Origin: Candidatus Omnitrophota bacterium
GTDB taxonomy: Bacteria > Omnitrophota > Gorgyraeia > Gygaellales > Profunditerraquicolaceae
Assembly (NCBI GenBank): GCA_028712255.1
Contig: JAQTQJ010000001.1
Coordinates: 12,366-76,365, forward strand
Direction: 5' to 3'
DNA length: 64,000 nucleotides
How positions within the stretch are numbered: position 1 is the stretch's first letter; each line of letters begins with the position of its first letter. The position numbers and the translations under genes are program-made. Below are positions 5,462-51,839 of the stretch, piece by piece. The notes beneath the pieces are model-generated. The model was not told the origin of the DNA and did no database searches. It saw only the letters and a program-made list of their open reading frames with translations.

Positions 5462-5543
5462 GTGTCATTGCGAGTCCGCCGAAGGCGGACGAAGCAATCT
5501 AATAAAAGATTGCTTCGTCGCTGTCGCTCCTCGCAATGACACC
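5462..5543. repeat. interspersed nested-palindrome element, full copy (GTGTCATTGCGAG-TCCGCCgaagGCGGAC-GAAGCAATCT aataaa AGATTGCTTC-...-CTCGCAATGACAC)
   Basis: seen in sequence; same termini recur at 12 or more other loci in this window. Confidence 0.85.
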
Positions 5544-6045: not shown

Positions 6046-7103
6046 GCCTGACAAAAGTTATAAAAATCAATCCTGTTTTACTTGATGAGGCGCATATTAA
6101 AGAGGCAGCTAAAGTTATAACTAGTGGCGGATTGGTGATTATCCCTACAGAGACTGTTTATGGAGTTGCTGCTAGCGCTTCAAACAATAATGCGCTGGAT
6201 AGGCTTTATGAAGTTAAGCAGCGGCCTAAGGATAAACCTTTTGCGTTACTAGTTGCGGATAATGAGATGGTAGAGGAGCTTGCCCGGGATATTCCCTTAG
6301 CCGCATATAAACTAATGCGTAAATTTTGGCCGGGGCCGTTGACAATTATATTAAATGCAGTTAAGGGAGGCAAGATTGGGTTACGTATGCCAGATAATCA
6401 GGTTGTTTTAGAGATTATTTATGAAGCCCAGGTTCCGCTGGCATGCCCTTCTGCAAATATCTCTGATCATTCTGCGCCGGTTGATTTTGCGCAGGCAATT
6501 AAAGATTTGGATGGCTTGGTGGATTTAGCCATCGATGCTGGCCAAACGAAATTAGGAGTAGAATCTACGGTAGTTGATTTAACCGTTGAGCCATTAAAGA
6601 TACTGCGAAGCGGTGCGATAAAAGATGACCAGATAATGGCAGCTGTGAAATCCAAAAAAATACTTTTTGTCTGTACCGGCAATTCCTGCCGCTCGGTAAT
6701 GGCCGAAGCGTATTTAAAAAAACTTTTAGCAAAACAGGGCAGGACTGATGTGGAGGTAAGTTCAGCCGGAATGATGGCGCTTGAGGGTATGGGTGCCAGT
6801 GAAGAAACACGTGAGGTACTGGCAAAAGATGGTATAGATGTCAGTGATCATCGCACCAAAAGAGTAACTAAGGAATTAGTTGATGGAGCGGATATTATTT
6901 TGGTGATGGAAAAAATACATGAAGAGAGGATTTTACAGCTTGCGCCAGAGGTTAAAAATAGGCTTTTTTTATTAAAGGAATTTGCTAGAATAAATGACAG
7001 TAACTTGAATATTGCCGACCCAATAGGAGGGTCTTTTGAGTTTTATCAGGAGATTTTCTATACCATTAAAGACGCTGTAGAAAGGATAAGTAAAATTATA
7101 TGA
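6042..7103 (+). CDS. L-threonylcarbamoyladenylate synthase (TsaC/YwlC, Sua5/YrdC domain) fused to a low-molecular-weight protein phosphatase (YwlE-like) domain
   Basis: N-terminal LVIIPTETVYGVAASA (YrdC/Sua5); C-terminal KILFVCTGNSCRSVMAEA (CX5R P-loop of LMW-PTP) and DPIGG. Confidence 0.75.
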   Translation: MSLTKVIKINPVLLDEAHIKEAAKVITSGGLVIIPTETVYGVAASASNNNALDRLYEVKQRPKDKPFALLVADNEMVEELARDIPLAAYKLMRKFWPGPLTIILNAVKGGKIGLRMPDNQVVLEIIYEAQVPLACPSANISDHSAPVDFAQAIKDLDGLVDLAIDAGQTKLGVESTVVDLTVEPLKILRSGAIKDDQIMAAVKSKKILFVCTGNSCRSVMAEAYLKKLLAKQGRTDVEVSSAGMMALEGMGASEETREVLAKDGIDVSDHRTKRVTKELVDGADIILVMEKIHEERILQLAPEVKNRLFLLKEFARINDSNLNIADPIGGSFEFYQEIFYTIKDAVERISKII

Positions 7104-9399: not shown

Positions 9400-9474
9400 G
9401 TGTCATTGCGAGCCCGAAGGGCGAAGCAATCTTTTAAAGGATTGCTTCGTCGCTGTCGCTCCTCGCAATGACAC
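9400..9474. repeat. nested-palindrome element, full copy (loop ttttaaagg)
   Basis: gtgtcattgcgagcccgaagggcgaagcaatcttttaaaggattgcttcgtcgctgtcgctcctcgcaatgacac. Confidence 0.85.
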
Positions 9475-9487
9475 AAATACAAAAAAT

Positions 9488-9955: not shown

Positions 9956-9977
9956 TTAACGGTTTCGCAATAGCACC

Positions 9978-10040
9978 AGTGTCATTGCGAGGAGTCCGAC
10001 AACGTTTCAGTGGCGGACGACGAAGCAATCTAATAAAGTC
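9978..10040. repeat. nested-palindrome element, left half only
   Basis: gtgtcattgcgaggagtccgacaacgtttcagtggcggacgacgaagcaatctaataaa. Confidence 0.8.
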
Positions 10041-10049: not shown

Positions 10050-10082
10050 GGGACCGTCCCACAAGGGACTGTCCCTTTTTTA
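10050..10082 (+). terminator. rho-independent terminator GGGACCGTCCC-acaa-GGGACTGTCCC + T-run (variant of the GGGGACGG hairpin family)
   Basis: perfect 11-bp stem followed by TTTTTTATTTT, downstream of nrdR. Confidence 0.75.
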
Positions 10083-10085: not shown

Positions 10086-10126
10086 TGTTAGATTTTACCA
10101 CTTCCTTCGTCTATTGTAGTAGCAAG
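10086..10126 (+). promoter_or_regulatory. conserved motif TGTTAGAT-N14-CGTCTATTGTAGTAG (copy 1 of 4)
   Basis: near-identical 40-nt sequence also at approx. 17774, 31040, 51276, always upstream of a small regulatory gene. Confidence 0.5.
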
Positions 10127-10135: not shown

Positions 10136-10164
10136 TTGACATAATATACCAAATATGGTATATT
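10136..10164 (+). promoter_or_regulatory. sigma70-type promoter TTGACA-17-TATATT overlapping a perfect 16-bp palindrome ATACCAAATATGGTAT (candidate HigA operator)
   Basis: seen in sequence about 15-45 nt upstream of higB-like start. Confidence 0.55.
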
Positions 10165-10179: not shown

Positions 10180-10533
10180 ATGATTAAGAAATTGAATTTT
10201 GTAGGTTCATCTCAAGAAGATATTAAGGATTTTCCGGAAGAAGTACGTTTAGACATCGGTTATGCGCTCTTTGTAGCTCAGAGAGGGGAAAAGTCGGAAG
10301 CGGCAAAGCCTTTGAGGGGGTTTGGTGGAGCCGGAGTCTTGGAAATCGTTGAGAACTTTGAGGGTAATACGTATCGGGCAGTTTATACCGTGAAATTCTC
10401 CAATGCGCTGTATGTGTTGCATTGTTTTCAAAAAAAGTCCAAACACGGTATTAAAACGCCACAACAAGATATTAATTTAATTAAACAGCGTTTACGAACA
10501 GTAGAAGAAGAGTATAATATATATTATAAATGA
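10180..10533 (+). CDS. type II toxin, HigB/Gp49-like (RelE/ParE superfamily)
   Basis: 117 aa, YRAVYTVKFSNALYVLHCFQKKS...TPQQDINLIKQR pattern of phage Gp49/HigB killer proteins; followed by XRE antitoxin. Confidence 0.6.
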   Translation: MIKKLNFVGSSQEDIKDFPEEVRLDIGYALFVAQRGEKSEAAKPLRGFGGAGVLEIVENFEGNTYRAVYTVKFSNALYVLHCFQKKSKHGIKTPQQDINLIKQRLRTVEEEYNIYYK

Positions 10534-10545: not shown

Positions 10546-10878
10546 ATGAGCATTAATAAAAATATTCATAAAGGAAGTGGTAATGTTTTTGCGGACATCG
10601 GGCTTGCTTTTCCCGAAAGAGTCCAAGCTCGGGCTGAGATAATGTTACTCATTGCGGGAATCATCAAAAAACGCGGCCTGACCCAAAAACAAGCATCTAA
10701 GCTTTTAGGGATTCCTCAGTCCAAAGTTTCCTGTTTAGTCAATGGTAAGCTTAGTATGTTTTCTCTGGATCATCTTTTCCAGCTATTAAATTTATTAGGT
10801 AATGACGTCGAGATCACCGTAAAACCGAAAACTAAAGCTGAAAGAATAGCCACAACACACGTTTTACAACTGGCTTAA
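10546..10878 (+). CDS. HigA-like antitoxin, XRE-family HTH protein
   Basis: RGLTQKQASKLLGIPQSKVSCLVNGK helix-turn-helix; 110 aa directly downstream of toxin. Confidence 0.6.
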   Translation: MSINKNIHKGSGNVFADIGLAFPERVQARAEIMLLIAGIIKKRGLTQKQASKLLGIPQSKVSCLVNGKLSMFSLDHLFQLLNLLGNDVEITVKPKTKAERIATTHVLQLA

Positions 10879-10895: not shown

Positions 10896-12728
10896 ATGCC
10901 TCAACCCAATTACATCTCTAACGAAATGTCCGCTTGCCTCAAGAGCTACTGGGGTTACACCCAGTTTCGGCCTTGGCAGGAGGATACTATTTTGGCCATT
11001 CTCGATGAGCGGGAAACCTTGACCATCCTACCCACCGGCGGCGGCAAATCGCTATGTTTTCAGCTTCCGGCTTTGTTAAAGGATGGTATGGCAGTAGTTA
11101 TCTCACCCCTAATTTCTCTAATGAAGGATCAAGTCGATGGCCTTAAAGATATGGGTATCTCCGCCGAATGCCTTAACTCCAGTCAGACCGCCAGCCAGCA
11201 GCGCGCGGTGATCGAGCGTATCCGCGACAGTCAGATTAAACTTTTGTATATTTCTCCTGAACGCCTGCAAACTGAAGAGACTATGGAGTTATTAAGATCA
11301 GCCACTTTGTCATTCTTTGTGATCGATGAAGCGCATTGCATTAGCCATTGGGGCCATGATTTTCGGGATGAATACCGCCAGCTCGGTAATATCAAAGATA
11401 ATTTCCCGGGAATAAATATTCATGCTTTTACCGCTACCGCCACCAAAGAAGTCCAGGAAGATATTCTTAGCCAGCTTAGGTTCGTTAGCCCGCGGATCAA
11501 CATCGCCTCAGTTGACCGTCCCAATCTGGCCTATCGGGTTATGCCTCGGCAGAGTATTATTCCTCAGCTGACTGAAGTTTTAGAGAAGCATTCTAAAGAA
11601 GCCGGGATCATTTATTGCCTGCGCCGCAAAGACGTGGATGATATTTCCCAAAAGCTAAATAAATTAGGATATAAAAATTTGCCTTACCACGCAGGGCTAA
11701 CCGACGAAGAGCGTCATGCCAACCAGGAGCGTTTTATCCGCGAAGAAGTCAATATTATCGTCGCCACTGTAGCTTTTGGCATGGGCATCGACCGTTCGGA
11801 TATCCGTTTTGTAATTCACGCCGCTATGCCCAAGAGTATCGAGCATTACCATCAGGAAACCGGACGCGCCGGCCGGGACGGTTTGCCTTCATACTGCTAC
11901 ATGTTTTACGGAGGGGGAGATTTCCGAGTCTGGGAATTTTTCTCCAAACAGTCTGCCAATCGCCAGGTCATGCTGGATAAATTAAGGATTATGTATAATT
12001 TTTGCACTCAGCCCCAATGCCGGCATAAAGTTTTCGTCAATTACTTTGGCCAGCAATATCAGCAGCCAACTTGTCAGGCCTGTGATTATTGCCTGGGCGA
12101 AGTGGATATGGTTGATGATCCGTTGCAGCTGGGCCAAACAATACTTAATTGTGTCGCCACCGTTAGATACGGCGATGACCAGGGTTTTGGCGCCGGATAC
12201 CTAGCTAATGTTTTAAAAGGAAACATCACCGACCAGATCACGAGATGGGGACACGATGCTCATCCAAATTTTGGTACAATGTCTAGCCAAACGCTTAATT
12301 TTATCCGCTACCTGATCGAACAGCTTATCGGCCAGGGTTTCTTGGAACGTCAGGGCGAATATGATACTCTTGGTTTAACTGATTTTGGCCAGAAACTTCT
12401 AAGCGGAGAGGTGGCTCCGATATTAGCCAAGCCACTAGTCGCTGAGAAAAAGAAAGCCATCAGCGCCCGCCAAAAAGCCAAAAAAGCCCAAGATTTCGCC
12501 GGGGTGGATGAGGAATTATTCGAATTACTCCGCGCCAAACGATCCGAATTAGCCAGAAAACAAGGCGTCCCCGCCTACATCATCTTCGGCGACAAGTCGC
12601 TAAAGGATATGGCCACCCGCAAGCCCACCACCCGAGCAGCCTTCTCCGAGGTCTTCGGGGTCGGTGAACACAAACTAAAAACCTACGCCGATCAGTTCAT
12701 AAGCGTGATCAAACAGCATATCAAATAG
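10896..12728 (+). CDS. recQ: ATP-dependent DNA helicase RecQ
   Basis: helicase motifs (TGGGKSLCFQ, DEAHCISHWGHDFR), zinc-binding C-x-C cluster, C-terminal HRDC-like region. Confidence 0.9.
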   Translation: MPQPNYISNEMSACLKSYWGYTQFRPWQEDTILAILDERETLTILPTGGGKSLCFQLPALLKDGMAVVISPLISLMKDQVDGLKDMGISAECLNSSQTASQQRAVIERIRDSQIKLLYISPERLQTEETMELLRSATLSFFVIDEAHCISHWGHDFRDEYRQLGNIKDNFPGINIHAFTATATKEVQEDILSQLRFVSPRINIASVDRPNLAYRVMPRQSIIPQLTEVLEKHSKEAGIIYCLRRKDVDDISQKLNKLGYKNLPYHAGLTDEERHANQERFIREEVNIIVATVAFGMGIDRSDIRFVIHAAMPKSIEHYHQETGRAGRDGLPSYCYMFYGGGDFRVWEFFSKQSANRQVMLDKLRIMYNFCTQPQCRHKVFVNYFGQQYQQPTCQACDYCLGEVDMVDDPLQLGQTILNCVATVRYGDDQGFGAGYLANVLKGNITDQITRWGHDAHPNFGTMSSQTLNFIRYLIEQLIGQGFLERQGEYDTLGLTDFGQKLLSGEVAPILAKPLVAEKKKAISARQKAKKAQDFAGVDEELFELLRAKRSELARKQGVPAYIIFGDKSLKDMATRKPTTRAAFSEVFGVGEHKLKTYADQFISVIKQHIK

Positions 12729-12768: not shown

Positions 12769-12832
12769 TCGTCATTCTGAGGGAGTCCGCCAACGTTCTG
12801 TGGCGGACGACGAAGCAATCTTTTTGGAACAT
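12769..12832. repeat. nested-palindrome element, left-half variant (GTCATTCTGAGG...GACGAAGCAATCT)
   Basis: cgtcgtcattctgagggagtccgccaacgttctgtggcggacgacgaagcaatct. Confidence 0.75.
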
Positions 12833-13512: not shown

Positions 13513-14454
13513 ATGGAATATAGAATGATTACGGCGTTAAAGCAAGCTAAGCCGTTTCTAAAATGGGCAGGAGGTAAGGGGCAGCTCCTCAACCAATTTA
13601 AGACATATTTTCCTCTGGAACTAAACGGCAAGGGGATTATTAAACATTATTATGAGCCATTTCTAGGCAGCGGAGCTGTTTTTTTCTGGGTCAAACAAAA
13701 TTGTAAACTGAAAGACGCTTTTATTAACGAATTTAACCCTGATATATATTTGTGTTATGCGGCAATCCAAAACAGTGTTGAGAAAGTAATTAAGTCGTTG
13801 CGAGCATTGGAGAAAAAATATTATTCTTTTGATAGTGTAGCCCAAGAAGAATTATATTATGAAATTAGGCACAAGTATAATGTTACGAGAAAGAATATAG
13901 ATTTTAAGCATTCTCAGGTTAAGAATTATCTTAATCGAGCCGCATCAACTATTTTTTTAAATCGTACTTGTTTTAATGGATTATACAGGGTTAATTCCAA
14001 GGGAGATTTTAATGTTCCTTTCGGCAGGTATAAAAATCCAACCATTTGTAATGATGATAATCTTAGGGCAGTAAGTGAGCTTTTGCAGGGAGCAGTAATA
14101 ACTAATGATGATTTCGGCGTAGTCGAGCGGCAAATCAAAGCATCATCTTTTGTTTACTTCGATCCCCCGTATAGGCCTTTGAATAAAACATCCAATTTTA
14201 CTTCATATTCTGCCAGTGAGTTTAATGATAGTGAACAGCAACGTCTTTCTGCTGTGTTTAAAAAGTTAAATAACATTAATGGCGTAAAACTTATGCTTAG
14301 CAATTCTGACCCTAAGAATGAGGATAAGGACGATAATTTTTTTGATAAGCTATATAGTGGTTTTCGCATTGAGCGTCTAAAAGCTCGAAGAATGATAAAC
14401 TGTGATGCTTCAAAACGGAGCGAGATTAACGAGATTCTGGTCATGAATTATTAA
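13513..14454 (+). CDS. Dam-family (alpha-class) DNA adenine methyltransferase
   Basis: LKWAGGKGQLL...EPFLGSGAVFF (motif I) and FVYFDPPY (motif IV) in Dam/D12 order. Confidence 0.8.
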   Translation: MEYRMITALKQAKPFLKWAGGKGQLLNQFKTYFPLELNGKGIIKHYYEPFLGSGAVFFWVKQNCKLKDAFINEFNPDIYLCYAAIQNSVEKVIKSLRALEKKYYSFDSVAQEELYYEIRHKYNVTRKNIDFKHSQVKNYLNRAASTIFLNRTCFNGLYRVNSKGDFNVPFGRYKNPTICNDDNLRAVSELLQGAVITNDDFGVVERQIKASSFVYFDPPYRPLNKTSNFTSYSASEFNDSEQQRLSAVFKKLNNINGVKLMLSNSDPKNEDKDDNFFDKLYSGFRIERLKARRMINCDASKRSEINEILVMNY

Positions 14455-14465
14455 ATCAAAGGTAT

Positions 14466-15032
14466 TTGAACATTGATAAGGAGCTATGTATGAAAACTGG
14501 TGGTTTAGGCGGAGCAAAAACATTAACAGGCCTGCATTTTGAAAGAAAAGTTGATTTTCAGCAGCTTATTGGCGATATTGCAGGCTATGAAGTTAAAACA
14601 GCCCTGGGAAAATCCGGAAAGGGAGTTTTCTTTGAGGGGAAGTTGGTTGCGAGATGTTTTAGGAAATATGAATTTTATAAATTTTTAACCGAGTCTAATG
14701 TTGATTGGAAAAAAATGATTGCAAAGAGACTTTTGCCCGATGACGCATTATTGGTTATTGTCCGTGAAACCCTATTTATTATTGAGGTTAAGTATCAACA
14801 AGTTGGTGGTTCAGTTGATGAGAAATTACAGACTTGTGACTTTAAGCGTAAACAGTATTTTAAGCTGGTTTCTTCACTTGGGTTAAAAGTAGAATATGTT
14901 TATGTTTTAAATGATTGGTTCAGAAAACCGGAATATAAAGATGTATTAGATTATATACATAGCGTGAATTGTCACTATAGGTTTAATGAGCTTCCTATGG
15001 CATGGCTTGGATTACCACTCAAAAAAGCATAA
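14466..15032 (+). CDS. putative PD-(D/E)xK nuclease, candidate restriction endonuclease
   Basis: PDDALLVIVRETLFIIEVKYQQ fits the D-x(n)-ExK catalytic pattern; sandwiched between two MTase genes; no nameable family. Confidence 0.4.
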   Translation: MNIDKELCMKTGGLGGAKTLTGLHFERKVDFQQLIGDIAGYEVKTALGKSGKGVFFEGKLVARCFRKYEFYKFLTESNVDWKKMIAKRLLPDDALLVIVRETLFIIEVKYQQVGGSVDEKLQTCDFKRKQYFKLVSSLGLKVEYVYVLNDWFRKPEYKDVLDYIHSVNCHYRFNELPMAWLGLPLKKA

Positions 15033-15818
15033 ATGGAAAACAAGTGCGAGCAGGATGATTTAGAGCTTCAGACTACAACAGTATGGTCATTCCCCAATCG
15101 CGGTAAATGGTTAACGCATAACGCTAAGTATCGTGGTAATTGGGCCCCTCAAATCCCCAATAATCTCATCCGGCTTTATTCTAAAGAAGGCGACACTGTT
15201 TTAGACCCAATGGTTGGCAGTGGTACTACAATGATTGAAGCAAAATCATTGGGCCGGAGAGGAATAGGTTTTGATATCCATCTCGAAGTTATCAAACTTG
15301 CTCAGGAATCATGTAAATTTGATTGTGACAAATGTTATGAGTCGGTCATTAAACACGGGGATGCCCGGGATCTAAAATCCGTAGAAGGCGAAAGCATTGA
15401 TTTAATTACTACTCATCCCCCATATTTAAACATTATTAAATATGGTGATAAAGAAATCGAAGGCGATCTCTCTGCAATTTACAGTCTTTCGAAATTTTGT
15501 GATGAGATAGAAAAAGTCGCTCTGGAATGTTATCGTGTTCTCAAGTCTGGTAAATATTGTGCAATCCTCATAGGAGATACGCGTCGTAGGCGGCATTATG
15601 TTCCGCTTGCCTTTAATGTTATGAACCGTTTTCTTAAGGCTGGGTTTATTCTCAAGGAAGACATTATAAAGCTTCAGCATAATTGTTCCACAACTAAGTA
15701 TTGGAACGCGCAGGAAAAAGATTTCTTACTCATTATGCATGAGCATCTATTTGTTTTTCGTAAAATAGGGAAGGAAGAACAGAGTGGCATCTTTAAGGAT
15801 AGTAGTGCGATTAATTGA
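15033..15818 (+). CDS. SAM-dependent methyltransferase, gamma-type (DPMVGSGTT ... TTHPPY), second MTase of the cassette
   Basis: FxGxG SAM motif about 75 residues before an (D/H)PPY catalytic motif; UPF0020/N6-N4 MTase-like. Confidence 0.55.
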   Translation: MENKCEQDDLELQTTTVWSFPNRGKWLTHNAKYRGNWAPQIPNNLIRLYSKEGDTVLDPMVGSGTTMIEAKSLGRRGIGFDIHLEVIKLAQESCKFDCDKCYESVIKHGDARDLKSVEGESIDLITTHPPYLNIIKYGDKEIEGDLSAIYSLSKFCDEIEKVALECYRVLKSGKYCAILIGDTRRRRHYVPLAFNVMNRFLKAGFILKEDIIKLQHNCSTTKYWNAQEKDFLLIMHEHLFVFRKIGKEEQSGIFKDSSAIN

Positions 15819-16475: not shown

Positions 16476-17117
16476 TTGATGTTTTCAGAATTAAGTCTCA
16501 ATAAAATAATTATGAAGAAAAGTAAAAAAATAAAACAAGAACGTTTCCATTACTCTTTGCAAATGGAGATGGCTGCTTGGGAACTTTATGGTATGAATAA
16601 GCGGCATGGAATGGCAAGCGCGTTTCAGAACTGTTCCTTCTTTAAGAAAGAGTGTAAAAATTTTATGAACAAAATTAGAAAGAGAATAAATCAGATAGTT
16701 ACCACGGATGAACTCTTCCGAGAAAATTTGAATGCTGATCTTGATAGTATAGAGAGAGAATTAAAATATTGTTCTAAAAATAATAATAACGATATTGATA
16801 TAATTGGTAAATTAATTAGTTTAGTTTCGCATCTTTTGGGTTGGGATCATTATGAGGGTGATTTTTATAGAACGCCGATGTTTTACCAGACAGAGGATCA
16901 GAAAGAAAAATCATTAAGAATTGTTGCTAAGCAAGGAGTCCCAAGCGAAACCGCGTTTCGCAGAAGAAATATTATTTTGCAATTACACAAAGAAGGTCTT
17001 TCATACCAACAGATTGGATTGATACTCGGTATTACTGATTCATGTGCAAAGCAGCTAGAAAAAGCAAGTCACTTAGATAAGTGGCATGAAGAAGAATTAA
17101 AAAGAAAGTCTCATTAG
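16476..17117 (+). CDS. hypothetical protein with C-terminal sigma-region-4/LuxR-like HTH
   Basis: LSYQQIGLILGITDSCAKQLEKAS helix-turn-helix near C-terminus. Confidence 0.3.
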   Translation: MMFSELSLNKIIMKKSKKIKQERFHYSLQMEMAAWELYGMNKRHGMASAFQNCSFFKKECKNFMNKIRKRINQIVTTDELFRENLNADLDSIERELKYCSKNNNNDIDIIGKLISLVSHLLGWDHYEGDFYRTPMFYQTEDQKEKSLRIVAKQGVPSETAFRRRNIILQLHKEGLSYQQIGLILGITDSCAKQLEKASHLDKWHEEELKRKSH

Positions 17118-17588: not shown

Positions 17589-17610
17589 GTATTTAAGTAG
17601 GGCGTCAATT

Positions 17611-17753
17611 AGATTGCTTCGTCGTCCGCCACAGGGCGTTGGCGGACTCCTCGCAATGACACAGGAGGATGGCGGACTTAGAATGACGGAAGAACAGGTG
17701 GCTCAGAATGACGGGGGGATGTATACATAATCAGTTGTGAGCTTAGAATGACT
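17611..17753. repeat. nested-palindrome element right half followed by degenerate tandem GAATGAC units
   Basis: agattgcttcgtcgtccgccacagggcgttggcggactcctcgcaatgacac ... ttagaatgacgg ... ctcagaatgacgg ... cttagaatgactg. Confidence 0.75.
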
Positions 17754-17773
17754 GAAGATATATAGAAATTTTC

Positions 17774-17813
17774 TGTTAGATTTTGCCTTTTCTTGCGTCA
17801 GTTGTAGTAAGAG
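17774..17813 (+). promoter_or_regulatory. conserved motif TGTTAGAT-N14-CGTCAGTTGTAGTAAG (copy 2 of 4), upstream of bro-N gene
   Basis: seen in sequence. Confidence 0.5.
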
Positions 17814-17844
17814 GATAATAATAACGCAGGAAAAGGAGGATAGC

Positions 17845-18669
17845 ATGGAGACGAAGATGGCGGTATTTAAAGGAAAAGGGATACGGAAAGTCATTTATAA
17901 TAATGAATGGTGGTTTGTGATTGAAGATGTAGTTATTGCTCTTATTGATTCAGGTGATCCTAAGCAGTATGTTCAAAGAATGAAACAAAGAGATCCGGAA
18001 CTGGCTAAAGGGTGGGTACAAATTGTACATACCCTTGAAATTCACACAGAAGGTGGAAAGCAAAAGATGAATTGCGCTAATACAGAAGGAGTTTTTCGTA
18101 TTATTCAGTCAATACCATCTCCCAAAGCAGAGCCGTTTAAACGTTGGTTGGCTAAAGTTGGTTATGAGCGAGTGCAGGAAATTGAGAATCCGGAGTTGGC
18201 AACCAAACGGACAAGGATGCTCTATAAACTCAAAGGATATCCCGATAGCTGGATTGAAAAACGTATGCGCGGTATTGCTATTCGTGAAGAACTTACGGAT
18301 GAATGGCAGAAACGCGGTGCGCAAGAAAAAAAGGATTACGAAATTTTAACTTCAGAAATATCAAAAGCTACCTTTGGGATTACGCCTGGCCAGTATAAGA
18401 AGATAAAACGGTTAAAACGTGAAAATCTGCGTGACCATATGGATGATTTTGAGCTTATCTTTACAATGCTTGGAGAAAGGTCAACTACCGAAATTCATCG
18501 CACTGAAGATTCGCAAGGTGTGCCGAAGCTTAAAAGCGATGCCAAGGCCGGAGGAGATATTGCCGGCAATGCCAGAAAACAATTGGAAAAAAGAATAAAA
18601 AGGCCGATTGTTTCAAGAGATAATTTTTTGGAGCAATCTAAAAGAGTCAAAAATTTGCCTTATAAATAA
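17845..18669 (+). CDS. phage antirepressor-like protein, Bro-N domain with KilA-C/ORF6C-like C-terminal part
   Basis: N-terminal FKGKGIRKVIYNNEWWFVIEDVVIALI (Bro-N); phage-type C-terminal domain. Confidence 0.6.
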   Translation: METKMAVFKGKGIRKVIYNNEWWFVIEDVVIALIDSGDPKQYVQRMKQRDPELAKGWVQIVHTLEIHTEGGKQKMNCANTEGVFRIIQSIPSPKAEPFKRWLAKVGYERVQEIENPELATKRTRMLYKLKGYPDSWIEKRMRGIAIREELTDEWQKRGAQEKKDYEILTSEISKATFGITPGQYKKIKRLKRENLRDHMDDFELIFTMLGERSTTEIHRTEDSQGVPKLKSDAKAGGDIAGNARKQLEKRIKRPIVSRDNFLEQSKRVKNLPYK

Positions 18670-18678: not shown

Positions 18679-18706
18679 TAGCGGATTCAGAATGACTGAA
18701 GATATA
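18679..18706. repeat. fragment of nested-palindrome element (TTCAGAATGACTGAAG)
   Basis: seen in sequence. Confidence 0.5.
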
Positions 18707-18776
18707 TAGTACGGCAATCTTTCCTTTTGCTCCCTATTTCTTAAACCTCAATAACAATAAAAAGGTTAGTTATAAA

Positions 18777-20666
18777 ATGGCGTTTATCAGTTTACAGGAA
18801 GTTAATCTTGCGTTTAGCGGGCCGCTGATTTTTAATGGTTTAAATTTACAGCTGGAGCAGGGGGAACGTATTGCCCTGCTTGGCCGTAATGGCGCGGGAA
18901 AGACCACCTTAATGAAGGTGATGATTGGCCAGCAGCCGGTTGACGCGGGTACAGTTATCACGCAAAAAGGAATTCAGGTTGCTCATCTGCCGCAGGAGGT
19001 GCCTGTGGATATCACCGGGAATGTTTTTGATATCGTTCTTTCGGGGCTGGGCGCGCGGGCTGAACTTTTAAGCCAGCACCACCGCCTTACCCAGCGTCTG
19101 CAAACAGAGCAGACTCCGGAATTATTGAGGCAGCTTGATACTCTCCAAGATAAACTTAACCATACTGATAGTTGGGATGTGAATAATCAGGTAGAAGAGG
19201 CTATTGCCAAAATGAAACTGGATCCGGATAGCGATTTTTCCCTGTTGTCCGGAGGGCAGAAACGCCGGGCGCTTTTGGCTAGGGCTTTAGTGCTTAAACC
19301 GGAGGTTTTACTGCTGGATGAGCCGACTAACCATTTGGATATTGATTCCATGCTTTGGCTGGAAGGATTTTTGCTCAATTACCCGGGTACGGTTTTCTTT
19401 GTGACCCATGACCGGATGTTTATGACGCGTTTAGCTACTAGGATCATTGAGCTTGATCGGGGAAGGATATATAGTTGGTCATGCGACTATAAGACATTTC
19501 TTGAACGTAAACAAGCAGCTTTGGATATGGAGGAAGCCCGGGATAGCCGTTTTGATAAAAAATTAGCAGAAGAAGAGGTTTGGATTCGTAAAGGAGTTAA
19601 GGCGCGCAGGTGCCGCAATGAAGGCCGGGTTAAGGCGCTGGAGCGTTTACGTGAGGAGAAGAAGCAACAGCGTAAGGCAATCGGAGAAGTACGCATGCGC
19701 GCGCAGAAAGTTGACCCTTCGGGCCAGCGGGTGATTAAAGTCGCGCAACTTGGATTTAGTTTTGGGGAGAAATGCCTGGTTAGGGATTTTTCCACCCAAA
19801 TAATGCGGGGCGATAAGATCGGCGTGATCGGGCCCAACGGCAGCGGCAAGACAACCTTGTTACGGCTTCTGTTGGGGCAGCTTGAGCCGCAAAAAGGCAA
19901 GGTAACCTTGGGAACGAATTTGCAGGTTGCTTATTATGACCAGCTGCGCGAGCAACTGGATGAGGATGCAACTGTGGCCGAAAACGTCAACGGAGAATCT
20001 GACGCCATCGTGATTAACGGTAAACCCAAACATATCATCGGATACTTGCAGGATTTTTTGTTTACTCCGGACCGGGCGCGCACTCCGGTTAAGGTGCTTT
20101 CAGGCGGGGAGCGTAACCGTCTTTTTCTGGCGCGGTTATTTTCCAAGCCTTCAAATGTTTTAGTCATGGATGAGCCGACCAATGACCTGGACATTGAAAC
20201 TCTTGAGCTTTTGGAAGAATTATTGCTGGAGTATCCGGGAACCCTGCTTTTAGTAAGTCATGACCGAGTTTTTTTGAATAATGTAGTTACCTCGACTATG
20301 GTTTTGGAAGGGGATGGCCTAATTAATGAATATGCCGGAGGCTATGATGATTGGTTAAGCCAGCGAAAATTCGCCCAGCAGCCCGCGGTAAAAGCAAAAC
20401 CGAAAAAAGAAATTATCCGCCCCAAAAAACCGGTAGTCCCGCGTAAACTTACTTCTAAAGAACAGCATGAACTTGATAGCCTTGCTTCGGTAATCGAGAA
20501 AATAGAGAATGAGCAAAAACAGATATATGCTCACCTAGCGGATTTTAAATTTTACGAGAAGGATCCTGCAGAGATCGCCGGAACCAAGGTCAGATTAGAA
20601 TTATTATCAGATGAACTGGAAAAGGCCTACGCGCGCTGGGAGTATTTAGAGGAATTATCGGAATAA
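18777..20666 (+). CDS. uup: ABC-F family ATPase (Uup/EttA-like), two ABC domains
   Basis: two Walker A (GRNGAGKTT, GPNGSGKTT) and two LSGG signature motifs, C-terminal coiled coil. Confidence 0.85.
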   Translation: MAFISLQEVNLAFSGPLIFNGLNLQLEQGERIALLGRNGAGKTTLMKVMIGQQPVDAGTVITQKGIQVAHLPQEVPVDITGNVFDIVLSGLGARAELLSQHHRLTQRLQTEQTPELLRQLDTLQDKLNHTDSWDVNNQVEEAIAKMKLDPDSDFSLLSGGQKRRALLARALVLKPEVLLLDEPTNHLDIDSMLWLEGFLLNYPGTVFFVTHDRMFMTRLATRIIELDRGRIYSWSCDYKTFLERKQAALDMEEARDSRFDKKLAEEEVWIRKGVKARRCRNEGRVKALERLREEKKQQRKAIGEVRMRAQKVDPSGQRVIKVAQLGFSFGEKCLVRDFSTQIMRGDKIGVIGPNGSGKTTLLRLLLGQLEPQKGKVTLGTNLQVAYYDQLREQLDEDATVAENVNGESDAIVINGKPKHIIGYLQDFLFTPDRARTPVKVLSGGERNRLFLARLFSKPSNVLVMDEPTNDLDIETLELLEELLLEYPGTLLLVSHDRVFLNNVVTSTMVLEGDGLINEYAGGYDDWLSQRKFAQQPAVKAKPKKEIIRPKKPVVPRKLTSKEQHELDSLASVIEKIENEQKQIYAHLADFKFYEKDPAEIAGTKVRLELLSDELEKAYARWEYLEELSE

Positions 20667-20782
20667 GAATAATTGCGCGGTGCATCTAGTTTTTCTTGAT
20701 AACTGGCATATTCGGACTTATAATACTTAGCTAATAAGTAAGTTGGTATTGCGGGTGATTGATGGGGTAATAAGTAGTTTAA

Positions 20783-20879
20783 AAGATTGCTTCATCGCTT
20801 CGCTCCTCGCAATGACACCGGCTACTTTTCGCAAGGACACGGCTACCTCGTAATGACACAGTTACTTTGTAATGACACG
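20783..20879. repeat. nested-palindrome element right half plus three degenerate AATGACAC units
   Basis: aagattgcttcatcgcttcgctcctcgcaatgacac ... cgcaaggacac ... cgtaatgacac ... gtaatgacac. Confidence 0.75.
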
Positions 20880-21307: not shown

Positions 21308-21343
21308 TAAATGGAACCGCTCTCTTTGCCATACCTGATAAAT

Positions 21344-21404
21344 AAAGGGGACAGTTCTATTTTTGGTTGAAAGAAAAATGAGAAAAACAGAACCGTCCCC
21401 TTTA
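21344..21404 (+). terminator. long hairpin AAAGGGGACAGTTCTATTTTT ... AAAAACAGAACCGTCCCCTTT (GGGGACGG hairpin family)
   Basis: seen in sequence between BFN gene and cca. Confidence 0.7.
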
Positions 21405-21409
21405 TTTCT

Positions 21410-25730: not shown

Positions 25731-25817
25731 AGTCATTCTGAGGAGTGCGCCGTAGGCGCGCGACGAAGAATCTAAAAAGAGATCCTTCGTCCGCCTGAAG
25801 CGGACTCAGGATGACGG
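25731..25817. repeat. nested-palindrome element, full copy, TCATTCTGAGG / CTCAGGATGAC variant
   Basis: agtcattctgaggagtgcgccgtaggcgcgcgacgaagaatctaaaaagagatccttcgtccgcctgaagcggactcaggatgacgg. Confidence 0.8.
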
Positions 25818-25833: not shown

Positions 25834-26826
25834 ATGAAAATAAAAAATACAGAAATTAAGGTAGTAATGAGTGATATTACTGAAATAAAGGCTGATGCTA
25901 TTGTTAATGCCGCTAATAATGAATTGGTGATGGGAGGGGGAGTTGCCGGGGCAATTAGGCGCAAGGGTGGTAAAATTATCGAAGATGAGGCAGTAAAAAA
26001 AGGCCCGATTAAAATTGGAGAGGCAGTTGCTACCGGCGCAGGAAAATTGCCAGCAAAATATGTAATTCACGCTGCTACGATGGGGATAGGTTTTTCCCGC
26101 CAATCAAATAAATCATCAGGCGGGATCCCGCCTGAGCTTTGTAAGAGCTGGGCGGGAAAGACGGATGAGATTAAAATTCGTGATGCTTGTAGGAGCTCAT
26201 TAAACTTGGTTAGTGAATTAAAGATTGGTTCAATTGTTTTTCCGGCTTTAGGTTGTGGTACAGGAGGATTTCCATTGCTTGCTTCAGCTAAAATTATGGC
26301 TCAGGAGGTTTTAAAGCACCTGCGTCAGCAGGAGTCGCCCCTTAAAGAAGTAATTTTTTGTCTGAATAATCAGGAGGCTGTTACTATTTTTAATAAAGGC
26401 GTATTGGGCTATCTGGAATATGTAACGACTAAATTGTCCGGTGGGCCTTATGTTACCGTGGATGCGATTATTGAATTACCCGAAGGAATTGTAATTATTC
26501 AGCGTAGTAATCCGCCTTTTGGCTGGGCGCTGCCAGGAGGTTTTGTAGATTACGGCGAGAGCTTAGAAGATGCGGTAATAAGAGAGGCAAAAGAAGAGAC
26601 TAATCTTGATTTGACCGAGGTTAAACAGTTTCATACCTATTCTGCTCCTAACCGTGACCCCAGATTCCATACAGCCGGAACAGTATTTATTGCCAAAGCT
26701 AAAGGAATCCCTAGAGCCGGAGATGATGCCGCAGGCTTAAAAGTTATTAAATTAAATGAAATAGAGAAGATGCAATTTGCTTTTGACCATAAAAAGATTC
26801 TTCAGGATTATCTAAATTCAAAATAA
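25834..26826 (+). CDS. Macro domain (MacroD/YmdB-type) fused to NUDIX hydrolase
   Basis: N-term [23 protein letters not shown] macro signature; C-term Nudix box [24 protein letters not shown]. Confidence 0.75.
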
Positions 26827-26827
26827 A

Positions 26828-26890
26828 AGGGACCGTTTCTGTTTTTCTACCTTTTAAGTTTAGAAAAACAGAAACGGTCCCTTTTATTTT
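26828..26890. terminator. bidirectional terminator: perfect 25-bp hairpin AAAAGGGACCGTTTCTGTTTTTCTA / TAGAAAAACAGAAACGGTCCCTTTT
   Basis: seen in sequence between convergent genes, flanked by T-runs on both strands. Confidence 0.85.
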
Positions 26891-30004: not shown

Positions 30005-31045
30005 ATGTTAAGGTGTTTAACTGCAGGTGAATCACATGGAAAAGGGATAGTTGCTATTTTAGAAGGATTTCCGGCTGGATTTCAGGTGGATCTTGCTGCG
30101 ATAAATAAAGAATTAAAACGCAGGCAAGCAGGATTTGGCCGTGGCAAGCGTATGCAGATAGAGAGTGACTGGGCCGAGATCGTCTCTGGCTTAAAAAATA
30201 ATTTTACCCTGGGTAGCCCAATTACCCTGTTAATTAAGAATAAAGATGCTAGTATTGAAAAGTTGCATAAAATTCTGGCTGCTCGTCCAGGACATGCGGA
30301 TTTAGCCGGGTTATTGAAATATGGTTTTACGGATATCCGGGAAGTATTGGAACGTGCTTCGGCGCGCAGCACGGTAGCGACGGTGGCAATAGGAGCAATA
30401 TGTAAGGGGCTGCTTAAGGAGTTTGGAATTGTTCTTACCAGTAATGTTTTGTCGGTGGGAGGAGAATTTACCAAAAATGGCATAGAGGCTAAAATAGCCG
30501 AGGCGATTAGTAATAAAGATACAGTCGGTGGGATTTTTGAGGTAGTTGCTAAAAATGTACCGGTTGGTCTTGGCAGCTATGTGCAGGCTGATCGCAGGCT
30601 GGATAGCCGGCTGGCCGCAGGAATTATGGCTATTCCGGGAATTAAATCCTTTGAAGTAGGGTTAGGATTAGGATATGCGGTTAGTTTTGGTTCAGAAGTG
30701 CATGATGCGATTTATTTTAATAATAAAAAAGGCTATTTTCGCTCGACTAATAATGCAGGCGGTATTGAAGGCGGGATATCTAACGGCCAGGAGATTGTTT
30801 TACGCGCCTGCATGAAGCCGATCTCTACACTCATGAAACCGCTTGATTCGGTGAATATCCAAAGTAAAAAATCTGCTAAGGCTGCGGTTGAGCGTTCAGA
30901 TACATGCGTAGTTGAATCTGCCGGTATTGTGGCTGAATCTGCGACTGCCTTTGTTTTAGCTGAGGCATTCTTAGAAAAGTTCGGCTCTGATTGTTTAAGA
31001 GACATAAAAGAAAGCTATAAAAATTATTTAAAAAGAATCTGTTAG
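30005..31045 (+). CDS. aroC: chorismate synthase
   Basis: AGESHG start, RSSARET-like and GGISNG motifs. Confidence 0.9.
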   Translation: MLRCLTAGESHGKGIVAILEGFPAGFQVDLAAINKELKRRQAGFGRGKRMQIESDWAEIVSGLKNNFTLGSPITLLIKNKDASIEKLHKILAARPGHADLAGLLKYGFTDIREVLERASARSTVATVAIGAICKGLLKEFGIVLTSNVLSVGGEFTKNGIEAKIAEAISNKDTVGGIFEVVAKNVPVGLGSYVQADRRLDSRLAAGIMAIPGIKSFEVGLGLGYAVSFGSEVHDAIYFNNKKGYFRSTNNAGGIEGGISNGQEIVLRACMKPISTLMKPLDSVNIQSKKSAKAAVERSDTCVVESAGIVAESATAFVLAEAFLEKFGSDCLRDIKESYKNYLKRIC

Positions 31046-31080
31046 ATTTTATCAACTCCTTCGTCTATTGTTGTAAGAAG
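31040..31080 (+). promoter_or_regulatory. conserved motif TGTTAGAT-N14-CGTCTATTGTTGTAAG (copy 3 of 4), begins at aroC stop codon, upstream of spoVG
   Basis: seen in sequence. Confidence 0.5.
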
Positions 31081-31094: not shown

Positions 31095-31352
31095 ATGGAA
31101 GAGAACGCAATCAGCGTCAGCCGCATATACAAGCTGGATACCGATTCCAAGCTTAAAGCTTTTGCGGATGTAACATTTTCGGGAGTTGTGATCAAAGGTT
31201 TTAGTGTGGTAAACGGCGAAAAAGGGTTATTTGTGAGTATGCCGCGCCATCAAGGCAAAGATGGGAAATGGTATAACACAGTTTATCCTTCGACCAAAGA
31301 ACTAAAGCAACAGTTAAGTGAAGTTGTCCTGGAAGCGTATAAAGGCAGCTAA
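31095..31352 (+). CDS. spoVG: SpoVG family protein
   Basis: 85 aa; VSRIYKLDTDSKLKAFADVTF...GLFVSMP matches SpoVG. Confidence 0.75.
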   Translation: MEENAISVSRIYKLDTDSKLKAFADVTFSGVVIKGFSVVNGEKGLFVSMPRHQGKDGKWYNTVYPSTKELKQQLSEVVLEAYKGS

Positions 31353-31356
31353 AATT

Positions 31357-31410
31357 AGGGGACGGTTCTATTTTTCTAGAACTGTACCGAGAAAAATAGA
31401 ACCGTCCCCT
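31357..31410 (+). terminator. perfect 21-bp hairpin AGGGGACGGTTCTATTTTTCT / AGAAAAATAGAACCGTCCCCT
   Basis: seen in sequence after spoVG. Confidence 0.8.
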
Positions 31411-31420
31411 AGATTTAAAA

Positions 31421-35157: not shown

Positions 35158-35168
35158 TTTTTTCTTAG

Positions 35169-35551
35169 GTGTCATTGCGAGGATGCGCCGTAGGCGCAGA
35201 CGAAGCAATCTTTTAAAGGATGCTAACCAAGCAGTACTACGTTTATTTTTTAACGAATTGGGATCATAAAGTTATCTATGTTGGCGTAACAGACGATTTA
35301 AAGCGCAGGATTTATGAGCATAAGAATGGATTAATTGATGGATTCACATGGAAATATCATGTGCATAAATTGGTCCATTATGAGATATGCGAAGAGATCC
35401 AGGGAGCTATTTTAAGAGAAAAACAAATCAAGGGCGGTTCTCGGCAGAAGAAAGTTGGACTGATTAACAAATTTAATCCTGAGTGGGATGATTTGTGGAG
35501 TAAGTTATAAAAAGATTGCTTCGTCCGCCTTCGGCGGACTCGCAATGACAC
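35169..35551 (+). mobile_element. composite element: nested-palindrome left half (35169-35219) + GIY-YIG nuclease gene (35220-35510) + right half (35511-35551)
   Basis: gene occupies exactly the loop position of the 80-bp repeat; start ATG is fused to the TTTTAAAGG loop and stop TAA abuts AAAGATTGCTTCG. Confidence 0.65.
35220..35510 (+). CDS. small GIY-YIG nuclease (UPF0213/YhbQ-like)
   Basis: YYVYFL...IYVGVTDDLKRRIYEH GIY-(10)-YVG motif, 96 aa. Confidence 0.75.
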   Translation: MLTKQYYVYFLTNWDHKVIYVGVTDDLKRRIYEHKNGLIDGFTWKYHVHKLVHYEICEEIQGAILREKQIKGGSRQKKVGLINKFNPEWDDLWSKL

Positions 35552-38389: not shown

Positions 38390-38420
38390 ATTTGTAATAG
38401 TTCAGTTTTAAGGAGTAGTT

Positions 38421-38503
38421 GTGTCATTGCGAGGAGCGATAGCGACGAAGCAATCTAAAAAAAGATTGCTTCCCCTTCGCTTCGCTCAGGGTCGCAATGA
38501 CAC
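38421..38503. repeat. nested-palindrome element, full copy
   Basis: gtgtcattgcgaggagcgatagcgacgaagcaatctaaaaaaagattgcttccccttcgcttcgctcagggtcgcaatgacac. Confidence 0.85.
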
Positions 38504-51224: not shown

Positions 51225-51245
51225 GATTAAAAACGAAAGAAATAA

Positions 51246-51266
51246 AAGGGGACGGTTCTATTTTTA
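51246..51266. repeat. solo half-copy of GGGGACGG hairpin family (AGGGGACGGTTCTATTTTT without partner arm)
   Basis: 19/19 identical to left arm of hairpin at 31357. Confidence 0.6.
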
Positions 51267-51275: not shown

Positions 51276-51316
51276 TTGTTAGATCTTGTTACCTCCTACG
51301 TCTATTGCAACAGGAG
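51276..51316 (+). promoter_or_regulatory. conserved motif TGTTAGAT-N14-CGTCTATTGCAACAGGAGG (copy 4 of 4), upstream of ORF6N gene
   Basis: seen in sequence; contains ACCTCCT...AGGAGGT inverted repeat overlapping the RBS. Confidence 0.5.
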
Positions 51317-51323
51317 GTAAAAG

Positions 51324-51839
51324 ATGAAAATTATTATTCCGGATGAAGTAATTGAGCAAAAGATATTCTTGATACGTGGACACAAAGTTATGTTGAGTAA
51401 TCATCTTGCTCAGCTTTACGGAGTTAGTACTAGCGCATTGACGCAGGCAGTTAGGCGTAATATTGAAAGATTCCCTGAAGATTTTATGTTTTTATTGAAG
51501 CGGGAAGAAATTATGAACTTATCACAATTTGTGATAAGTTCTAAACTAAAACATGCTCCTAATGTTTATGCTTTTACTGAACAAGGAGTGGCAATGCTCT
51601 CAAGCGTTTTACGTAGTAAAAAGGCTATACATGTCAATATCGCCATTATGCGGGCATTTGTGAAACTACGTCAGATTCTATCTTCGCATAAGGAATTAAT
51701 ACATAAATTAGAAGAGTTGGAGCAAAGAATTGGAAAGCATGATGCAGCAATAAAGGATATTTTTGGAGTGATCCGTCAACTAATGGAACCGCCTAGTCTA
51801 AAAGAAAAAGTAATAGAAGGTTTTCGTGCTCCAAAGTAG
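51324..51839 (+). CDS. ORF6N domain protein (phage antirepressor/KilA-N-related)
   Basis: IIPDEVIEQKIFLIRGHKVMLSNHLAQLYGVSTSALTQAVRRNIERFPEDFMF is the characteristic ORF6N N-terminus. Confidence 0.6.
   Translation: MKIIIPDEVIEQKIFLIRGHKVMLSNHLAQLYGVSTSALTQAVRRNIERFPEDFMFLLKREEIMNLSQFVISSKLKHAPNVYAFTEQGVAMLSSVLRSKKAIHVNIAIMRAFVKLRQILSSHKELIHKLEELEQRIGKHDAAIKDIFGVIRQLMEPPSLKEKVIEGFRAPK

Follow-up and report, generated by a model that had tools for sequence, protein, structure and literature searches.

What is encoded by a short sequence that recurs four times, on the same strand, in a 64,000-nucleotide stretch of a Candidatus Omnitrophota genome (contig JAQTQJ010000001.1, positions 12,366 to 76,365; the whole stretch is hereafter called the window)? 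Omnitrophota are widespread, uncultured, often ultra-small and possibly host-dependent bacteria, and a literature search found no description of gene regulation in this phylum. The motif is best explained as defining a phylum-wide Omnitrophota regulon, and from comparative sequence analysis we assign a probability of about 0.72 to its being a promoter read by an alternative sigma factor of the extracytoplasmic function (ECF) type (group 4) of Candidatus Omnitrophota. We regard the motif as new, as no prior description was found in the literature on Omnitrophota in combination with sigma factor, competence or ECF.

The pattern TGTTAGAT-N14-CGTC had four exact matches in the window (at 10086, 17774, 31040 and 51277, all on the plus strand), compared with 0.11 expected from shuffles of the window that preserve dinucleotides; four or more matches occurred in none of 100 such shuffles. 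A repeat search of the window returned the four copies as its top family, at 71–76% identity over 51 nt. A preceding reading of the window, made from its letters without database searches (the sequence-only reading), had called the copies near-identical, which overstates this identity; the positions that it gave were correct except that the fourth copy starts at 51277 rather than 51276, and its claim of exactly 14 nt between TGTTAGAT and CGTC in all four copies was confirmed. The full 12-mer CGTCTATTGTAG was confined to copy 1, and copy 2 carries CGTCAGTTG. The window has a G+C content of about 40%, its genes lie nearly all on the plus strand, and no tRNA or tmRNA genes were found in it. The four copies are built as follows:

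10086..10116, plus strand: motif copy 1, with -35-like block TGTTAGATTTT at 10086-10096, spacer at 10097-10107 and -10-like block CGTCTATTG at 10108-10116
17774..17804, plus strand: motif copy 2, with TGTTAGATTTT at 17774-17784 and CGTCAGTTG at 17796-17804 (2 mismatches to the consensus)
31040..31070, plus strand: motif copy 3, with blocks at 31040-31050 and 31062-31070, the aroC stop codon TAG (31043-31045) falling within the -35-like block
51277..51307, plus strand: motif copy 4, with TGTTAGATCTT at 51277-51287 and CGTCTATTG at 51299-51307

The distribution of the motif was determined by a genome scan with the exact 19-base pattern TGTTAGATNTTN11CGTCTATTG against one genome per species (185,579 species), for which we estimated about 4 matches by chance. 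The scan gave 65 loci, nearly all in metagenome-assembled genomes (MAGs) of Candidatus Omnitrophota, with 10 loci in one MAG; a few were labelled Planctomycetales or 'bacterium', and the single match in Paceibacterota looks like chance. Among 2.9 million viral contigs the exact pattern had no match. Because the motif is Omnitrophota-wide and was not matched in viral contigs, it is a feature of a bacterial phylum and not of prophages. The sequence-only reading had placed it in prophage control regions, an idea that does not survive these results, the motif also standing before recA, radC, comEA-like, comM and dprA genes and an anti-sigma-like gene; the same reading had proposed a small regulon, of which the regulon stands, but not its small and local extent. 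A second set of loci, ascertained without the motif, consisted of metagenome loci found by means of the Omnitrophota RadC protein. Of the 25 loci whose RadC shared 66% identity or more with that of Omnitrophota, 18 had the motif (up to 5 mismatches over 20 positions) 35–109 nt upstream of radC. More distant RadC loci gave only background, at 8–11 mismatches, together with one 6-mismatch match without CGTC that is likewise background.

The repeated motif is 31 bases long and has the consensus A/T-rich tract, nGTTAGATTTT, 11 variable bases, CGTC(T/A)ATT(A/G); from the RadC set a less biased consensus, nGTTAGATTTn-N11-CGTC(T/A)ATT(A/G), was obtained. In the 71 copies analysed, positions -9 to -2 were A/T-rich (A at -8 in 51 copies), and position 9 of the block TGTTAGATTTT, left free in the search pattern, was T in 69. 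The 11-base spacer was variable yet pyrimidine-rich, the CGTCTATTG block was followed by the consensus nnGTAGGAGG, and nothing was conserved further upstream of the motif. CGTC was kept in nearly all accepted copies. Spacer length was fixed: a relaxed scan of 502 kb, in which up to 4 mismatches over 20 fixed positions and spacers of 10–12 nt were accepted, found 89 copies, every one with a spacer of 11 nt. With spacers of 9–13 nt allowed in the RadC-ascertained 367 kb, 19 matches fell at 11 nt and one weak match each at 9, 10 and 12 nt, so that the alternative spacers (9, 10, 12 and 13 nt) had single weak matches at most.

The position of the motif relative to genes is that of a promoter. It is asymmetric and always oriented toward the downstream gene, and a same-strand open reading frame (ORF) with a Shine-Dalgarno sequence followed within 300 nt in 84 of 90 copies. 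The start codon lies at motif positions 46–57 in about 60% of copies and 65–250 nt away in the remainder. A terminator-like hairpin with a T-run ended at most 70 nt upstream in 21 of the 90 copies; in 17 of these it ended 5–19 nt upstream, too close for another promoter to fit in between. In the window, copy 1 is preceded by such a terminator-like hairpin of nrdR (10056-10077) plus T-run. In seven copies the stop codon of the upstream gene was at or inside the motif.

The internal layout agrees with that of ECF promoters. The distance from TGTTAG to CGTC is fixed at 16 bp, within the ECF range of 14–17 bp, and a T-tract proximal to the -35, optional in several ECF groups, is present as TTTT at positions 8–11. 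ECF promoters of Bacillus subtilis have the form tGAAACnTTTt, in which a T-tract adjoins the -35; their -10 is CGTA or CGTC and their spacers measure 14–17 bp (PMC5758882), and 'cGT' is a general ECF -10 core (PMC6061681). On the proposed mechanism, TGTTAG would be the -35 element and the adjacent ATTTT its proximal T-tract; CGTCTA, exactly 16 bp downstream of TGTTAG, would serve as the -10 element, with the A/T-rich stretch that immediately precedes the motif acting like an UP element. The transcription start would be the conserved (G)TAG of motif positions 35–37, some 7 nt beyond CGTCTA, which for copy 1 predicts a start near 10121-10122; in the majority class, with ATG at positions 46–57, the leader would thus be very short and have the Shine-Dalgarno sequence at its 5' end.

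A housekeeping sigma-70 interpretation, TTAGAT-18-TATTGT, was considered and rejected: a consensus scan flagged none of the four window copies, and position 32, the last base of TATTGN, was not conserved (T 33, A 23, G 11, C 4). The true sigma-70-like promoters of the phylum look canonical (TTGACA-17-TATATT or TATAAT). In proposing the TTAGAT and TATTGT pair, the sequence-only reading was right to see a bipartite promoter with a dedicated sigma factor but chose the wrong hexamers, as the conserved parts are GTTAGA with its T-tract, and CGTC, in an ECF layout.

At recA and toxin-antitoxin (Gp49/HTH) loci the motif lies a variable 57–92 nt upstream of a separate TTGACA-N17-TATAAT promoter, an arrangement that fits two tandem promoters and not an operator or activator site. 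It bears on the explanation that the motif is a transcription-factor site, for an activator or repressor of, for example, SOS or competence type, acting on a nearby housekeeping promoter. We consider this quite improbable. The gene set (recA, radC, dprA, comM, comEA) resembles regulons that other bacteria place under factors such as LexA, ComK or Sxy/CRP, and a short inverted repeat, TAGA ... TCTA, is common to both blocks. Such a site would have to be reconciled, however, with the asymmetry and strict orientation of the motif toward the gene, with a short class that has no sigma-70-like -10 before the start codon (a sigma-70 scan found none at copies 3 and 4), with a distance to the sigma-70-like promoter that varies between about 57 and 92 nt, unlike the fixed position of an activator or operator, and with a CGTC block and T-tract that match the ECF promoter layout. 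A LexA-type SOS box, which would be palindromic and overlap the housekeeping promoter, was rejected on the same asymmetry and on the variable distance to the sigma-70-like -35 at recA loci.

If the motif is an ECF promoter, a candidate for the sigma factor that reads it is found beside the motif itself. Just upstream of the motif in three loci outside the window (L063, L005 and L029) lies the gene of a ~200-aa protein, at 626-1243 in L063, with Sigma70_r2 and r4 domains; the protein matched the TIGR02937 sigma70-ECF superfamily with 72 bits against a cutoff of 42.9. Its stop codon overlaps or directly precedes the motif, and behind the motif follow a gene for a ~235-aa anti-sigma-like protein, in which the zinc anti-sigma signature H-x3-C-x2-C was read from the sequence, and a gene for a ~730-aa CHAT/TPR protease-like protein. 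L055 shares this operon layout, its motif being the variant TGTTAGATTTC. The sigma gene has a sigma-70-like promoter of its own. The motif was located within the sigma/anti-sigma operon in eight of nine loci (L005, L029, L055, L063, L066/L067, L068, L149 and L150). Four of these distinct loci (L066/L067, L068, L149 and L150) had been found via the sigma protein alone; all four contained the motif, in the gene order H+-pyrophosphatase, sigma, motif, anti-sigma-like, CHAT/TPR, Rrf2. The sigma family comprised 889 homologues (E up to 1e-10), of which the top 120 were 70–100% identical, and every source name given was Omnitrophica or Omnitrophota. This conserved ~200-aa ECF sigma is the most likely cognate factor and probably the one that reads the motif, an assignment made from adjacency, which is not proof. 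Once active, it would induce its own inhibitor from the anti-sigma-like gene behind the motif, and this would constitute negative feedback.

Several points weigh against this interpretation of the motif. Most copies were found by the exact pattern, which biases the consensus, and the RadC set corrects for this only in part. The -35 block GTTAGA lacks the AAC typical of ECF promoters, implying an ECF-like layout with a new -35 specificity. The anti-sigma assignment depends on a sub-threshold zf-HC2 match (E 7e-4) together with the H-x3-C-x2-C signature. The motif stands behind the sigma gene, whereas in classic autoregulated ECF operons the promoter is in front of that gene, and another sigma factor could read the motif; in one of the nine sigma loci, L060, there is no motif between the sigma and anti-sigma genes, and a tblastn search of the window found no cognate sigma gene. 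Finally, those spacers that pair strongly with a ribosome-binding site (see below) may be transcribed, and the promoter model accommodates this only if read-through RNA plays a role.

The window does contain an ORF (16476-17117, 213 aa), two genes upstream of copy 2, whose matches to sigma-70 region 4 and to the ECF superfamily stay below threshold (E 5e-4 to 7e-4); it is unrelated to the Omnitrophota sigma that adjoins the motif in other loci. In most loci the sigma operon is directly downstream of a gene for an H+-translocating pyrophosphatase, and in the sigma-ascertained loci a gene for an Rrf2-family regulator comes after it, a synteny conserved across Omnitrophota. The arrangement was noted at:

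1-502 in L063
4504-6603 in L005
~7050-7200 in L055, minus strand
6956-9055 in L066
7787-9886 in L068
3802-5901 in L149

A secreted ~520-aa Sortilin/BNR-repeat protein, encoded downstream of the sigma locus, has its own motif copy; the gene follows the CHAT/TPR gene in L055 and L036 and lies ~7 kb beyond CHAT/TPR in L066 (noted at 19371-19418). This protein may belong to the same signalling unit as the sigma locus.

Which genes the promoter would control was examined in the window and in the other loci. The products that had been named for the genes downstream of the four window copies were all confirmed by Pfam (Gp49/HigB-like with HTH_37, Bro-N, SpoVG and ORF6N), and the four copies are ordinary members of the regulon, placed before higBA-like(-recQ), bro-N, spoVG and ORF6N genes:

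10180-10533, plus strand: Gp49/HigB-like gene after copy 1 (Pfam)
10546-10878, plus strand: HTH_37 antitoxin-like gene after copy 1 (Pfam)
10896-12728, plus strand: RecQ helicase gene after copy 1 (Pfam), 18 nt beyond the HTH gene
17845..18669, plus strand: Bro-N domain gene after copy 2 (Pfam PF02498, E 3.6e-14), with an orthologous arrangement in L051
31095..31352, plus strand: SpoVG gene after copy 3, between aroC and aroK (Pfam PF04026, E 8.6e-20)
51324..51839, plus strand: ORF6N domain gene after copy 4 (Pfam PF10543, E 1.1e-29)

Judged only by their spacing, we infer that the Gp49/HigB-like, HTH_37 and RecQ genes are co-transcribed, and copy 1 may serve the RecQ gene as well. SpoVG likewise follows the motif in L014 and L064, and the aroC-motif-SpoVG order of copy 3 recurs in L014. 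Across all loci, downstream genes were assigned by clustering and Pfam for 84 instances:

ORF6N: 18 of the 84 instances, the commonest downstream family
Anti-sigma-like: 6 instances
Secreted Sortilin/BNR proteins: 6 instances
HHH_3 ComEA-like: 5 instances
RecA: 5 instances (two copies before the same L012 recA gene)
RhuM/Fic: 5 instances
N6_N4 DNA methylase: 4 instances
RadC: 4 instances, plus the RadC-ascertained set
SpoVG: 3 instances
ComM/YifB: 3 instances
Bro-N: 2-4 instances
DprA, KilA-N, YhcG nuclease, Cas5d and IS200-type transposase: 1 instance each

Toxin-antitoxin genes of the Gp49/HTH, TacA and MazE types were also found downstream of the motif, and in the MAG PPR_0461 the motif stands before comM, recA, comEA, radC and dprA. 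The proposed regulon would consist of three parts: genes for DNA uptake and recombination (recA, radC, comEA-like, comM and dprA), genes related to defence and mobile elements (ORF6N, Bro-N, KilA-N, RhuM/Fic, toxin-antitoxin pairs, DNA methylases and a Cas5 gene), and a third part comprising SpoVG and the secreted BNR proteins. In three loci (L027, minus strand, 6460-6490; L035, 1998-2028; L060, minus strand, 480-510) the motif is followed by neither a Shine-Dalgarno sequence nor an ORF. Here it precedes GTGAGGGCA... and a long self-complementary stretch, repeated in L060, a possible small RNA gene driven by the same promoter.

The first part of the gene set invites comparison with competence regulons, which are governed by ComX/sigma-X, an alternative sigma factor, at the cin-box in streptococci, by Sxy/CRP-S in Haemophilus and Vibrio and by ComK in Bacillus. 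These resemble the Omnitrophota regulon in that comEA, comM, dprA, radC, recA and a DNA methylase are placed under one dedicated signal; they differ from it in their DNA motifs and in the families of their regulators. Among the genes that follow the motif, the sample examined included no pilus, comEC or comF gene. A function in competence is suggested by the gene set only.

The accessory genes raise the question of whether the motif could itself be mobile. Copies cluster in short islands of ORF6N, Bro-N, KilA-N, RhuM and YhcG genes, each gene having its own copy (four copies in L051 and in L057, three in L040 and in L008), and the L012 recA gene is preceded by two tandem copies 100 nt apart. 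On one explanation, which appears very improbable, the motif would mark where a mobile cassette ends or serve for recombination, for example as an integron-type core site (GTTAGAT fits GTTRRRY), and would be carried with small accessory genes. The loci with 3-4 copies within 8 kb are in keeping with this, as are the many accessory genes downstream (ORF6N, Bro-N, toxin-antitoxin pairs, RhuM) and a perfect 21-nt direct repeat that flanks the Bro-N segment of the window; promoter-plus-gene units may still move. By contrast, the inverse core RYYYAAC was not enriched within 160 nt upstream (14 loci versus 10.9 +/- 3.0 in shuffles) and the exact ATCTAAC was present in 1 of 80, no associated recombinase or integrase was seen, and copies are scattered among core genes, the motif standing in conserved synteny across genomes before recA, radC, aroC-spoVG and sigma/anti-sigma genes. 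A promoter travelling with accessory genes accounts for the same facts. The direct repeat, AGAATGACTGAAGATATATAG, is at 17745-17765 and 18689-18709, and because it flanks a 923-bp segment comprising copy 2 and the Bro-N gene, it suggests that promoter and gene were inserted or duplicated as a unit.

The sequence-only reading had also noted that in three copies the 3-prime part of the motif is complementary to the downstream Shine-Dalgarno sequence and had raised the possibility of a leader that sequesters the ribosome-binding site. Complementarity was indeed found, although in the variable spacer and not in the 3' block, and within the window it was strong only in copies 2 and 4. Pairing of the spacer with its own translation-initiation region (-8.12 kcal/mol) was stronger than with non-cognate regions (-7.06 kcal/mol; permutation p = 2e-4), stronger than that of the reversed spacer (-6.62 kcal/mol) and stronger on the sense than on the antisense strand (-5.43 kcal/mol; p = 4e-14). 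Uninterrupted runs of at least 12 pairs were present in 18% of cognate and 6% of chimeric combinations, and where the Shine-Dalgarno sequence is distal, at methylase and Bro-N loci, the complementary segment shifts along with it. Strong pairing was confined to about a quarter of the copies; many have none, including all anti-sigma copies. Two hairpins are predicted in the window:

17786..17836, plus strand: predicted hairpin of copy 2, arm 17786-17798 (mostly spacer) with 17824-17836 (Bro-N Shine-Dalgarno), 13 pairs
51283..51325, plus strand: predicted hairpin of copy 4, arm 51283-51297 with 51312-51325 (AGGAGG and the first bases of ATG)

The hairpin of copy 2 has a free energy of -22.7 kcal/mol (z -4.4), and none of 200 shuffles folds as well; for that of copy 4 (-15.5 kcal/mol, z -3.2) one of 200 does, and in this second hairpin the G of AAGAUG is the partner of the unusual C at motif position 9. 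Copies 3 (z -0.9) and 1 (z -1.0) are unremarkable. Over 55 copies, RNAalifold gave only a 5-pair invariant helix of -0.57 kcal/mol. A fixed-register helix had 64.5% paired cells versus 63.1% in shuffles, a value reached by 48 of 500 shuffles, and the covariation score (0.294 versus 0.275) was reached by 59 of 500. A search of the whole window at Rfam gathering thresholds gave no match, and two copies searched at E up to 10 gave only far sub-threshold matches to miRNA-precursor hairpins. Because there is no consensus helix and fixed-register pairing is close to that of shuffles, the complementarity is mostly compositional, with a pyrimidine-rich spacer facing a purine-rich Shine-Dalgarno sequence.

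These data decide how far the motif could be explained as a transcribed 5' leader or cis-regulatory RNA, with its promoter further upstream, in which the hairpin between spacer and Shine-Dalgarno sequence blocks translation and a protein or small RNA bound to the invariant 5' tail (UGUUAGAUUUU) and loop (CGUCUAUUG) switches it. We rate this explanation as improbable. It would account well for the strong hairpins at copies 2 and 4, for cognate pairing in excess of chimeric controls, for the tracking of the distal Shine-Dalgarno sequence, for a sense strand favoured by G-U pairs and for the several copies inside operons, directly behind a stop codon. It does not account for the missing consensus helix and covariation, for fixed-register pairing at the level of shuffles or for the many copies without complementarity, among them all those before the anti-sigma gene, nor does it have an Rfam match. 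Moreover, where its promoter would sit there is no upstream conservation, in 17 copies a terminator ends 5–19 nt upstream of the motif, and at recA and toxin-antitoxin loci a sigma-70-like promoter intervenes between motif and gene, so that the main transcript would be without the leader element. A sequestering leader is thus retained for a subset of copies and given up for the family.

If, as we favour, the motif is an ECF promoter with a start after CGTCTA, mRNA driven by the sigma factor would lack the 5' arm, and sequestration is possible only on read-through RNA. Tentatively, the pairing may silence read-through transcripts in a subset of genes, although we hold this to be somewhat doubtful: predicted transcripts that read through and hold both arms would be silenced, whereas transcripts initiated by the sigma factor inside the loop would stay translatable. 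A comparable principle is the fold-back of insertion sequences such as IS10, in which sequence upstream of the element's transcription start pairs with the ribosome-binding site and only transcripts from the element's own promoter are translated. In Omnitrophota, by contrast, the upstream arm would be the promoter's own spacer, pairing occurs in a subset of copies only and its function is putative.

Among known sigma-dependent systems, the ECF promoters of B. subtilis (sigma-W, -X, -M and -V; PMC5758882) are alike in having a six-base -35 separated by one base from a T-tract, a -10 that starts with CGT(C), a constant spacer within 14–17 bp (16 here), close adherence to the consensus and an overlap with stress regulons; SigW was also the best sub-threshold NCBIfam similarity of the Omnitrophota sigma. 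They differ in that the Omnitrophota -35 is GTTAG(A) and not GAAAC, the downstream block extends to CGTCTATTR and the targets are different. In Myxococcus xanthus, DdvS/DdvA, an ECF sigma with a zinc anti-sigma factor that carries a TPR-CHAT domain, controls a CBASS/CRISPR-Cas defence island (PMC6061681, PMC11506125). In both systems an ECF sigma is joined with a zinc-binding anti-sigma domain and with a protease-like CHAT/TPR module, and some targets are related to defence, which in Omnitrophota are toxin-antitoxin pairs, methylases, a Cas5 gene and ORF6N/Bro-N/KilA-N genes. Unlike DdvS/DdvA, the Omnitrophota anti-sigma-like (~235 aa) and CHAT/TPR (~730 aa) proteins are encoded by separate genes, the specialised promoter stands after the sigma gene and not before the operon, and the regulon is scattered over the genome and includes recA, radC, comEA, comM and dprA; DdvS promoters are of the AAc/cGT type. 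In the type III-E CRISPR craspase, Csx30 is cut by the TPR-CHAT protease Csx29 and is itself linked to an RpoE-like ECF sigma (PMC10028731). A link between a CHAT/TPR protease and release of an ECF sigma would be shared, being in Omnitrophota a candidate link. The Omnitrophota sigma resembles the type III-E associated sigma model NF041236 weakly, at 29.8–33.9 bits against a cutoff of 100, and is therefore not a member, and unlike craspase, the Omnitrophota sigma loci examined had no CRISPR type III-E context. DdvS/DdvA and craspase are both precedents, in the control of defence, for the combination of an ECF sigma with a zinc anti-sigma and a CHAT/TPR module.

Taken as a promoter, the motif is a map of a regulon that can be read from sequence alone, and it names a candidate sigma/anti-sigma/CHAT-protease switch. 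Classic uptake and recombination genes share it with toxin-antitoxin, methylase, ORF6N/Bro-N/KilA-N and RhuM/Fic genes, which points to their co-regulation, and ideas on DNA acquisition and phage defence in Omnitrophota become testable. A bolder and rather unlikely proposal is that of a phylum-wide, self-insulated expression module, in which the spacer of the ECF promoter would double as an anti-Shine-Dalgarno arm and genes for uptake and recombination and for defence and mobile elements would be wired to a sigma/anti-sigma switch gated by the CHAT/TPR protein. If this were true, a gene would be translated only from sigma-initiated transcripts, and a single signal sensed through the protease, for example infection or cell contact, would turn on DNA acquisition and anti-phage functions at the same time. 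For annotators, the motif can be treated as a promoter rather than as a prophage feature or RNA gene, and the sigma/promoter pair, with its unusual -35 specificity, is a candidate orthogonal part for synthetic biology.

Other elements of the window lie close to the motif copies. Between copy 1 and the Gp49/HTH pair there is one of the canonical sigma-70-like promoters:

10136..10164, plus strand: sigma-70-like promoter TTGACA-17-TATATT (11/12, with TG)

The palindrome ATACCAAATATGGTAT within its spacer, found in the same arrangement in L007 and L016, is probably the operator of the antitoxin. A recurrent long palindrome, AAAAGGGGACGGTTCTATTTTT ... AAAAATAGAACCGTCCCCTTTT, was found at 21340-21407, 26820-26890 and 31350-31417, with a half copy at 51240-51265, and has the look of a shared bidirectional terminator. 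Immediately before motif copy 4 only its left arm is present, and similar hairpins, GGGGACGGTTC, precede the motif in other Omnitrophota loci. Intergenic palindromic elements resembling REP sequences (GTGTCATTGCGAGGAGTCCGCC ... GGCGGACGACGAAGCAATCT and relatives) occur between genes, often in tandem; the window offers no explanation for their spread:

5462-5542, 9417-9481, 9976-10034, 12769-12826, 17606-17665 and 20780-20819, both orientations: REP-like elements
25785-25815, 35155-35221, 35499-35551, 38415-38502 and 49720-49790, both orientations: REP-like elements (continued)

Between copies 1 and 2, a cluster resembling a restriction-modification system (13513-15818) encodes a D12-class adenine methylase, a PD-(D/E)XK nuclease-like protein and an N6_N4 methylase.

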